From the NCBI GenBank assembly GCA_002788555.1, contig PFRL01000055.1, positions 1 through 25,265 of the forward strand: DNA of 25,265 bases, in the 5' to 3' direction. This document shows positions 6,270-7,505 of this stretch, piece by piece. The notes beneath the pieces were generated by a model. It saw only the letters and a program-made list of their open reading frames with translations. It was not told the origin of the DNA and did no database searches. The translations under genes and the position numbers were made by a program. Numbering within the stretch: position 1 is the stretch's first letter; each line of letters opens with the position of its first letter. The DNA comes from Parcubacteria group bacterium CG_4_9_14_0_2_um_filter_35_11. GTDB taxonomy: Bacteria; Patescibacteriota; Minisyncoccia; Minisyncoccales; GCA-002788555.

Positions 6270-7064
6270 TTAAGATTGCAAGGTCTCCCAACTGTTTTTA
6301 GAGGCGATTTTTAATAACTCTTTATCTGGCTCAACTACTACTGGATGACCCACTAATTTTAACATTGGCAAATCAAAAATGCTATCTGAATAAGCAAAAC
6401 TTTCTTTAAAATTAACTTTTAATTTTTTTTGGGAAAGAAAGTTTTCCAATTTTTCTACTTTTTGTTTGCCAAAACATAAAGGAGGAACAATTCTGCCAGA
6501 GAATTTATCTTTTTTAATTTCCAATTTTGTACCAATTGCGAAGTTGATATTAAGTTGATTTGCAATAATATTTAAAAGTCCCTGAAAACTTCCAGAAAGC
6601 AAAATAGTGGAAAAACCTTTTTTTTGATGTTCTTTTAGTCTTTTTAGAATATTCTTTTTTATACTTGGCAGAAGATATTCCTTGGCTAACCATTGAAAAA
6701 AAATAGAAGTTTTTCTTTGATTTTTTCCTTTTATCATTGTCGCTATATCTTGCCCCCAACTTTTATAATATTCTTCTTGAGAAAGAAAACCAATCTTCCA
6801 AAAAGGAATCAAGGCCATATGATAAAATATATACCAAAAAACTGGAAAGAGATTCTCTTTTTCTTTTAAATTGTATTTAACAATACCTAACCAGACATGG
6901 CGGCTTACTAAAGTCCCATCCAAATCAAAAATGGCAACCTTTACCCCGTTAGAAAGCTCCACCTTTTGGGATGGAGATGAATTAGATATTCCACCCTTGT
7001 TTCTAGAGAGAATGGAACCTGAAGCCATATTCCTTCTAACGGGGTTTACTTCCTGGTTTCTCAT
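6270..7064 (-). CDS. HAD-IB family hydrolase (phosphoserine phosphatase-like) with a 35-aa N-terminal insertion
   Basis: Motif I FDLDGTL, motif II LLSGS, motif III Lys (GKQK), motif IV YSDSIFD, then HPVVV.PD. Confidence 0.9.
   Translation of the reverse strand: MRNQEVNPVRRNMASGSILSRNKGGISNSSPSQKVELSNGVKVAIFDLDGTLVSRHVWLGIVKYNLKEKENLFPVFWYIFYHMALIPFWKIGFLSQEEYYKSWGQDIATMIKGKNQRKTSIFFQWLAKEYLLPSIKKNILKRLKEHQKKGFSTILLSGSFQGLLNIIANQLNINFAIGTKLEIKKDKFSGRIVPPLCFGKQKVEKLENFLSQKKLKVNFKESFAYSDSIFDLPMLKLVGHPVVVEPDKELLKIASKNSWETLQS
6940..7048. mobile_element. MITE-like element: 101 bp, 11-bp terminal inverted repeats, 4-bp TTTA direct repeats, in frame inside the HAD gene
   Basis: TTTA(6940-43) | CCCCGTTAGAA(6944-54) ... 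TTCTAACGGGG(7034-44) | TTTA(7045-48). Removing the element plus one TTTA (105 bp, 35 codons) restores MRNQEVKVAIFDLDGT. Confidence 0.75.
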
Positions 7065-7067
7065 GTT

Positions 7068-7505
7068 TTAACTAATTTTTCTATGCGAGAAAAGGTTCTC
7101 AATTCTTCTTTTTTGACTAAAAGTAAAATGATGAACTGTGGGCATCCTCTTTTTTCTGTTATTGGAGATTGCTTTTTGACCACCCAAATAGAATCCTATA
7201 TGATAGTGACCCTTTTGCTTCTCCCATAAAATAATGCTTCCTTCTTTTGGTTTTTTTATTTCAAACCAGCCGGATTTTCTCATATCCTTTATTGTCCCGT
7301 CAACTGTTAGGTGAGGAGATTTAATTAGATTAAAATGGTAAAGGATTGATGAGACAAAGAAGGCACAAGAACGTCTTCCTTTGTCAGTTAAATTTATTTT
7401 TTTATTTTTAATTTTGCCGAAAAAATCACGGAAAATTTTTGTCCCCTGGCTATTTTTAATCATTGAAAGATAATTATCCTTGAAAAGAATTTGAATCTTT
7501 TCCAT
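7068..7505 (-). CDS. Small NlpC/P60-like (papain-fold) protein
   Basis: SCAFFVS nucleophile-Cys motif, G.I.LWE strand and GHYHIGFYLG His motif; no signal peptide seen. Confidence 0.6.
   Translation of the reverse strand: MEKIQILFKDNYLSMIKNSQGTKIFRDFFGKIKNKKINLTDKGRRSCAFFVSSILYHFNLIKSPHLTVDGTIKDMRKSGWFEIKKPKEGSIILWEKQKGHYHIGFYLGGQKAISNNRKKRMPTVHHFTFSQKRRIENLFSHRKIS

Follow-up and report, generated by a model that had tools for sequence, protein, structure and literature searches.

The window studied here is a stretch of 25,265 nucleotides from Parcubacteria group bacterium CG_4_9_14_0_2_um_filter_35_11 (contig PFRL01000055.1). It carries a 101-nt gene-less element at positions 6944–7044, which lies near the start of a HAD-IB hydrolase gene and leaves the reading frame of that gene open. 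The best explanation as a whole, to which we assign a probability of about 75%, is that the element is a non-autonomous mobile copy, tolerated in frame, whose family is moved in trans most likely by a GIY-YIG nuclease. The element and its site have the following parts:

6940–6943: target-site duplication copy 1, TTTA (TAAA on the gene strand), identical to 7045–7048; a perfect 4-bp repeat stands at the same position in 20 of 34 genome loci
6944–6954, plus strand: left terminal inverted repeat CCCCGTTAGAA, with 39 exact genome copies against 0.12 expected
6955–7033: 79-nt interior of the about-100-nt subfamily, non-coding by itself, with relatives in the source genome (G000) and in genome G071
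7034–7044, plus strand: right terminal inverted repeat TTCTAACGGGG, the perfect complement of the left arm
7045–7048: target-site duplication copy 2, TTTA, the same as 6940–6943
6270–7064, minus strand: HAD-IB (TIGR01490-type) hydrolase gene, with the insert between codons 6 and 42, identified by PF12710 match and ortholog alignment
7068–7505, minus strand: NlpC/P60-like gene upstream of the HAD gene, with its stop codon 3 nt before the HAD ATG; metagenome locus L104 has the same neighbour

The plus strand of positions 6940–7048 reads TTTA-CCCCGTTAGAA-(79 nt)-TTCTAACGGGG-TTTA. The repeat finder showed that the two 11-bp arms were 100% complementary, and that the arms were 12 nt long and 79 nt apart once an adjoining A/T pair supplied by the flanks was counted. 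These two arms were the sole matches to the end motif in the window. The element plus one TTTA amounts to 105 nt, or 35 codons, which are translated in the HAD frame as NPVRRNMASGSILSRNKGGISNSSPSQKVELSNGV with no stop. A first-pass annotation of this DNA had reported the inverted repeats, the TTTA flanks, the 105-nt length and the stop-free frame, and all of these were confirmed. Its statement that the window holds no transposase was also borne out. In silico excision of 6944–7048 gave the empty-site sequence CAGGAAGTAAAGGTTGCC and the protein start MRNQEV-KVAIFDLDGT, which matches the ortholog consensus MxNxExKVAIFDLDGT, as that annotation had expected of a normal HAD start. On each strand, two frames read through the end sequences (FTPLE...LTGF or xPVR...SNGV), and the third runs into TAG or TAA.

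The interior of the window element is approximately 71% identical, over its full length, to G000:C6:13456–13552 and G071:C12:7018–7118. Full-length relatives of this about-100-nt subfamily were found in the source genome (C6, C25 and C1) and in G071, a genome from a different family. The covariation term for the internal fold of the subfamily was about 0, with only five sequences compared. An Rfam search of the element matched no family.

The HAD gene product has 264 residues and matched the Pfam HAD family (PF12710, E = 4e-21) at residues 44–236; JGI names its homologs as members of the TIGR01490 family. Nearly all of the 120 homologs listed were 223–230 aa long and aligned from query residue 39–42 onwards. 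More than 80 homologs lacked the 35 residues, including a relative with 67% identity and three same-order genomes with a short 10-residue N-terminus. The short form was also found at about 60 metagenome HAD loci. In an alignment of 16 HAD sequences, the 35 residues occurred only in a 99% and an 82% relative, the remainder read MxNxExKVAIFDLDGT, and the invariant HAD residues were all kept in the window protein. The presence of the 35 residues in two database proteins is what speaks for a native, lineage-specific N-terminal extension, such as a targeting peptide. Set against it are the short orthologs, the perfect inverted ends and duplication that bound the segment, and the recurrence of these ends at 34 genome loci, and this reading is effectively refuted. 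The 82% relative (P0002) looked mosaic; both of its ends were near-identical to the window protein and its middle resembled the 67% relative (P0003). It appears from its sequence to be a recombinant allele or a chimeric assembly, and it was left out as independent evidence.

In the AlphaFold2 model, residues 41–264 were confident, and residues 1–38 had a predicted local distance difference test (pLDDT) score below 50, partly because that segment lacks aligned homologs. The modelled pattern would fit a flexible tail that precedes strand 1 and lies clear of the active site. In the HAD frame, no start codon occurs between the element and the catalytic Asp, so at least part of the insert would be translated if the enzyme is made. 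With the upstream stop codon only 3 nt from the HAD ATG, the arrangement favours the native start and suits coupled translation. The insert also holds an ATG (codon 13), with AAGGA just 5′ of it, and a GTG (codon 35), either of which could be used instead of the native start, so that the insert would be only partly translated; a sister element at locus L115 does supply a new ATG to its host gene. The strong mRNA hairpin, with a fold of −41 kcal/mol, could lower HAD expression or effectively silence the gene. We regard partial translation or silencing as unlikely given the open frame, the position of the native ATG and the HAD core with all its invariant residues. Translation from the native start through the whole insert is probable and is the reading followed below.

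The sister element lies at L115:1100–1330 (Ga0172364_10102396). This 88-nt family member occupies the start codon of a HAD ortholog with a duplication of TGAA, and the empty allele is found at L137. At L115 the old ATG now opens a 22-codon open reading frame (ORF) that ends in an ATGA overlap with the new element ATG (MKISNGVNNSIKK...), which indicates that the element supplies the working start. A 45-nt hairpin of another kind (TCCTTCGGC...GTCGAAGGG) was observed in frame at codon 8 of 242-aa HAD orthologs, where it encodes the peptide IVLRQVQDNPEQSRR (L108:1460–1510, also L119, L109 and L115; compared against L105). The HAD N-terminus is a repeated landing site, with three independent hairpin insertions in the first 8 codons of the gene family.

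The first-pass annotation had proposed a non-autonomous element family, and copies of the ends were found throughout the source genome. The source assembly comprises 543.5 kb in 58 contigs, with 35% G+C and 87.6% completeness. Base composition predicts 0.12 occurrences of the exact 11-mer end; 39 were found, rising to 76 when one mismatch was allowed, and nearly all stood in facing pairs. There were 34 unique loci of 28–174 nt with these ends, 16 of which were hairpins of 28–33 nt with unconserved loops. A perfect 4-bp direct repeat just outside the ends was found at 20 of the 34 loci (0.18 expected by chance), and 28 matched at 3 of 4 positions. The repeats differed between loci (TAAA, TTTA, TCAA, TTGA, TTCA, TTTG), and the same test at offsets of 4–16 nt, used as a control, gave 0–1 loci. 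The 4-bp repeats at the family ends are a target-site duplication signature. Terminal inverted repeats, a copy-specific duplication, dispersed non-coding copies and empty sites in relatives, all of them features of miniature inverted-repeat transposable elements (MITEs), were found here; the empty sites are those of the HAD orthologs without the insert and, for the sister copy at L115, that of L137.

Most copies were intergenic and located in short spacers, several directly after stop codons. Copies in ORFs of at least 100 aa were depleted, with 7 of 34 observed and 29.5 expected by random placement (minimum 22 in 2000 trials). It had been suggested that the family tolerates or favours in-frame insertion; the in-frame copies bear out tolerance, and the depletion speaks against preference. 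The length tabulation modulo 3 that had been advised gave a similarly divided result. Among genic copies, 6 of the 7 measured were multiples of three and every clear one left the host frame open; over all 34 loci the ratio was 13:14:7, with no excess of multiples of three. The rule is limited to genic copies, as selection would give. No clear case of an out-of-frame copy splitting a gene was found among the 34 loci. In silico excision fused short open frames at two loci only (C15:3523 and C24:11315), and these fusions look like chance. The other genic copies named are as follows, all in frame; those in YbeY, the two aminotransferases and the DUF5661 protein add 12–21 residues:

C53:5254–5285: YbeY, peptide FTPLDNKENLTG (12 residues)
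C52:3345–3376: class-V aminotransferase (Aminotran_5, cysteine desulfurase-like), peptide NPIRKSSISNGA
C42:2380–2438: DUF5661 protein, 21 residues, 6 aa from the start
C25:10487–10620 (L098:501–634): pilin-like gene, 134 nt, 46 residues in the leader
C22:10526–10556: DegT-like aminotransferase, boundaries uncertain owing to a 1-nt shift in one end

The copy in the pilin-like gene rebuilds the G/FTIVE cleavage motif (...GFTIVEAM...) after itself, reading ...EGFTPLE...LTGFTIVEAMIAIFIL..., and the N_methyl Pfam match of this gene was weak (E = 0.01). Prepilin peptidase would probably remove this insert along with the leader.

The position of most copies in short intergenic spacers, some right after stop codons, and the conservation of stems with unconserved short loops could suggest structures with a host function. 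These might be terminators, repetitive extragenic palindromic (REP)-like sites served by a REP-associated tyrosine transposase (RAYT), uptake sequences, RNA-processing stems or RNA-level introns. Such a reading is very improbable in view of the copy-specific 4-bp duplications and the occurrence of both filled and empty alleles. Moreover, the stem is not followed by a T-run, Rfam gave no match and no Y1 transposase was found in the genome. Copies also reside in coding regions with their frames kept open, and RNA excision would not need open frames. The GTTAGAA/TTCTAAC cores, like the 28-bp forms, brought an integron attC or Xer/dif-like site to mind. Such a site was rejected on three grounds: the cores stand in the opposite order to those of attC, spacer length ranges from 3 to 150 nt and each copy has flanking duplications. 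A DNA-uptake sequence was rejected on the low density and the duplications.

The first-pass annotation had advised looking for further copies of the ends in the genome and its relatives, and they are present in both. Neither outcome that it had named as refuting its reading, a normally conserved insert in all orthologs or a lack of other copies of the ends, was observed. Of 301 genomes sampled from the same order, 90 (79 of 200 genera) carried the exact end pair at a spacing of 5–135 nt, and a single genome held at most 40. A reversed-pattern control gave 0 in all 301. Perfect 4-bp flanking repeats were present in 8 of 12 examples fetched from other same-order genomes, including CCCG, CAAG and CATA. 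Among species-representative genomes, the ends occurred in at least 120 contigs of many phyla; the matches listed included Omnitrophota, Planctomycetota, Nitrospirota, Thermodesulfobacteriota, Gammaproteobacteria, Elusimicrobia, Clostridia and several Patescibacteria lineages. At these multi-phylum loci, 51 of 81 short hairpins had perfect 4-bp repeats; for single contigs, the assignment of such metagenome-assembled genomes (MAGs) may contain binning errors. A letter-perfect hairpin was also observed in one MAG of Aenigmatarchaeota, a DPANN archaeon (L212, JAUXAV010000067.1), as well as at loci L184–L263, which cover about a dozen phyla.

Two further subfamilies of approximately 130 and 110 nt, with the same ends, recur across several genera (G133, G041, G084, G073, G180, G189 and G013). 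Their interiors are well conserved and internally hairpinned, for example GTCTGTCTTATATAAC...CAGAC and CAGAAAAAA...TTTTTTCTG, and they might be structured passengers.

Wider end pairs revealed a candidate autonomous partner. The pairs at L056 (282 bp) and L053 (285 bp) each enclosed a single ORF for an 85-aa GIY-YIG protein (PF01541), which at L056 occupies 1520–1774. This ORF starts approximately 20 nt from the left end, and its TAA stop is the TAA within the right end TTCTAACGGGG. Nucleases of at least 75% identity were found in 10 of the 301 genomes, and 10 of 10 were bounded by CCCCGTTAGAA ends. These units were 280–287 bp long (278–287 bp over all such units), and 7 of the 10 had perfect 4-bp duplications (TCAA, TTGA, TGAA, TATG, TGGA). 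Nucleases at 46–59% identity had altered ends (ACTCCGTTAGAAATTT, ACCCCGTTAGAGAT, ATCCCGTTAGAAAT, CTCCGTTAAAAATTTT, CCCCGTAGGAAATAA and CCCCGTACCACAGC). The ends vary in step with the nuclease clade, which points to the nuclease as the likely mobilising enzyme. The first-pass annotation had advised looking for an autonomous element with the same ends; candidate units exist in other genomes, none was found in the source genome, and the candidates are not transposase-bearing insertion sequences (ISs).

At an identity of at least 73%, the nuclease clade numbered over 120 clusters. The catalytic residues Y5, Y15, G17, R25, H29 and E61 were invariant in 21 aligned sequences (18 of the clade and three small GIY-YIG ORFs of the source genome). 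The best PDB sequence matches were UPF0213 proteins (1zg2, E = 5e-7) and SLX1, and NCBIfam gave only a sub-threshold match to a group I intron endonuclease. Hairpins occurred in 7 of 10 genomes with the nuclease clade compared with 83 of 291 without it (Fisher p = 0.009, a support that is overstated as the genomes are related). In about 1.9 Mb of loci, duplication-bounded units of 200–500 bp were all nuclease units except two gene-less ones (266 and 493 bp). Four long end pairs in the same loci (1.5–3.7 kb, all TAAA/TTTA) enclosed ordinary genes (glycosyltransferase, DUF2304, DUF1559) and appear to be separate hairpins paired by chance.

A series of findings, together with the internal start codons and the mRNA hairpin described above, weighs against the proposed explanation. 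The source genome, at 87.6% completeness, yielded no nuclease unit bounded by these ends. Its four small GIY-YIG genes share only 43–48% identity with the clade, and neither they nor its UvrC gene have the repeat at their borders. The most hairpin-rich genomes, G277 (40) and G280 (30), have no close member of the nuclease clade. The interior of the window element showed no similarity to the nuclease-bearing units, so the window element is not a deletion derivative of them. GIY-YIG enzymes are nucleases and are not known to carry out strand transfer, and the characterised ones leave 1–2-nt overhangs, so that the 4-bp duplication has no demonstrated chemistry. The source-genome copies may be relics; alternatively, the unassembled 12% may encode a nuclease that serves them, or a paralog may cross-mobilise them.

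Some of these points would favour the view that the GIY-YIG gene is cargo or a separate selfish homing gene, and that another enzyme, a classical transposase or a host factor encoded elsewhere, moves both the hairpins and the 282-bp units. Hairpin-rich genomes, the source genome included, without the close nuclease clade agree with it, as do the lack of a known GIY-YIG route to 4-bp duplications and the ability of end pairs to enclose other things, for example a tRNA in G134 and G104. We nevertheless consider it rather unlikely. The ends change together with the nuclease clade, the ORF takes up the unit with its stop inside the right end, and the duplication-bounded units of 200–500 bp are nuclease units but for the two gene-less ones. 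Furthermore, the Y1 (PF01797), DDE_Tnp_1, rve and TnpB families had no match in the source genome at its 87.6% completeness.

The tRNA case consists of a whole tRNA gene, with an anticodon region that reads GCA, between the end pair at G134:C54:1721–1826 (L049) and at G104:C53:1369–1475. The pair at L049 has no matching 4-bp duplication, and G134 and G104 belong to different families. Such pairs could be two separate insertions, a composite or a cargo capture. In the source genome, tandem copies of another palindrome (GGCACGCTAAGCGTGCC) were observed at G000:C9:3533–3730, directly 5′ of a small GIY-YIG gene on the minus strand (C9:3732–3938), and the two may form a second nuclease–hairpin pair.

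In the preferred explanation, the window element is a gene-less copy of a cut-or-copy mobile DNA family with 11–13-bp inverted ends that begin with CCCCGTTAGAA and with a 4-bp duplication. Its target in the HAD-IB gene was TAAA on the gene strand, between codons 6 and 7. Both ends are read without a stop in the host frame (NPVR...SNGV), and the gene stays open. The product would be a hydrolase whose catalytic DxDGT strand is preceded by 35 extra N-terminal residues, probably disordered. The insert probably has no host function and may survive since this position tolerates insertion. The family would most likely be mobilised in trans by the 85-residue single-domain GIY-YIG nuclease. The 4-bp duplication could arise, for example, if each strand were nicked 4 nt beyond the foot of the folded hairpin, on the model of the Ssn nucleases.

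The nearest published system is Ssn/SRM. Ssn nucleases are single-strand-specific GIY-YIG enzymes of approximately 94 aa, whose genes are flanked by a dispersed hairpin and which cut a few nucleotides 5′ of it (Chenal et al. 2025, PMC11893778). For SsnA of Neisseria meningitidis, the authors liken the NTS-ssnA-NTS arrangement to that of an insertion sequence (PMC11893778). The likeness to the present family lies in a small (about 90-residue) single-domain GIY-YIG gene flanked by a genome-dispersed hairpin, an arrangement found here in other genomes only. The hairpin sequences are unrelated; the published SRM consensus HGTCWY...RNCYNB matched 0 of 34 elements and had 0 matches in the whole source genome. 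The elements described here have true terminal inverted repeats, are flanked by 4-bp target duplications and exist as both filled and empty alleles; no such features are reported for Ssn (PMC11893778). Unlike Ssn hairpins, they also reach 174 nt with varied interiors.

The family resembles Rickettsia palindromic elements in its in-frame residence, which adds peptide segments to host proteins (HAD, YbeY, Aminotran_5, DUF5661 and pilin-like). Those elements, attributed to Ogata et al. 2000, are reportedly short and palindromic and are said to sit in frame in housekeeping genes without destroying the protein. They differ in host phylum and probably in sequence, and the family here has 11-bp ends, a 4-bp duplication and a candidate partner, and is mostly intergenic. 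The resemblance is one of behaviour only, and the element is probably not a member of the Rickettsia palindromic element or MITE sequence families. Bacterial MITEs such as Correia/NEMIS, RUP and ERIC are non-coding and multicopy, with inverted ends, a target duplication and a partner that shares only the ends. The element is a MITE in behaviour. It departs from MITEs in its candidate partner, a 282-bp GIY-YIG unit and not an IS with a DDE transposase, in members as short as 28–33 bp and in its occurrence in many phyla.

REP sequences and REPINs with their RAYT enzymes, and IS200/IS605 derivatives, are also dispersed hairpins, thought to move as folded single strands with the enzyme acting in trans. 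Insertion of the IS200/IS605 type is not known to make a target duplication. These models fail here because the Y1/HUH enzyme (PF01797) was not found in the source genome and a 4-bp duplication is present. In rRNA genes of the candidate phyla radiation (CPR), GIY-YIG genes were found in short non-intron insertions scattered over non-conserved sites (Tsurumaki et al. 2024, PMC11270868). Small GIY-YIG genes in short insertions of Patescibacteria are common to both cases; inverted ends, duplications and gene-less derivatives are not mentioned in PMC11270868, and the likeness drawn here is one of description. The end motif was absent from the searchable literature, where only unrelated primers matched.

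The window copy is probably a passive, harmless passenger, and the interest lies in the family. The family has letter-perfect ends across many phyla, and its sole candidate enzyme is a GIY-YIG nuclease of 85 residues. We speculate, tentatively and with somewhat more doubt than belief, that the 278–287-bp unit is a DNA transposon able to move on its own, belongs to a new enzymatic class and is the smallest autonomous transposable element known. It would mobilise gene-less hairpins with 4-bp duplications, would have spread horizontally through Patescibacteria and at least 12 other phyla, possibly including DPANN archaea, and would seed new peptide segments and start codons. If the nuclease does move these elements, it would represent a new catalytic class for DNA transposition. 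The inverted ends, duplications and filled and empty sites would then provide evidence of mobility, which in the 2025 Ssn work was still a hypothesis. A nuclease this small, sequence-specific and directed at a defined hairpin, could also be of value in biotechnology. For the organism itself, the window offers a clean natural case in which a mobile hairpin is incorporated into a protein, within a genome of only about 0.55 Mb, which bears on the origin of peptide segments in streamlined symbionts.

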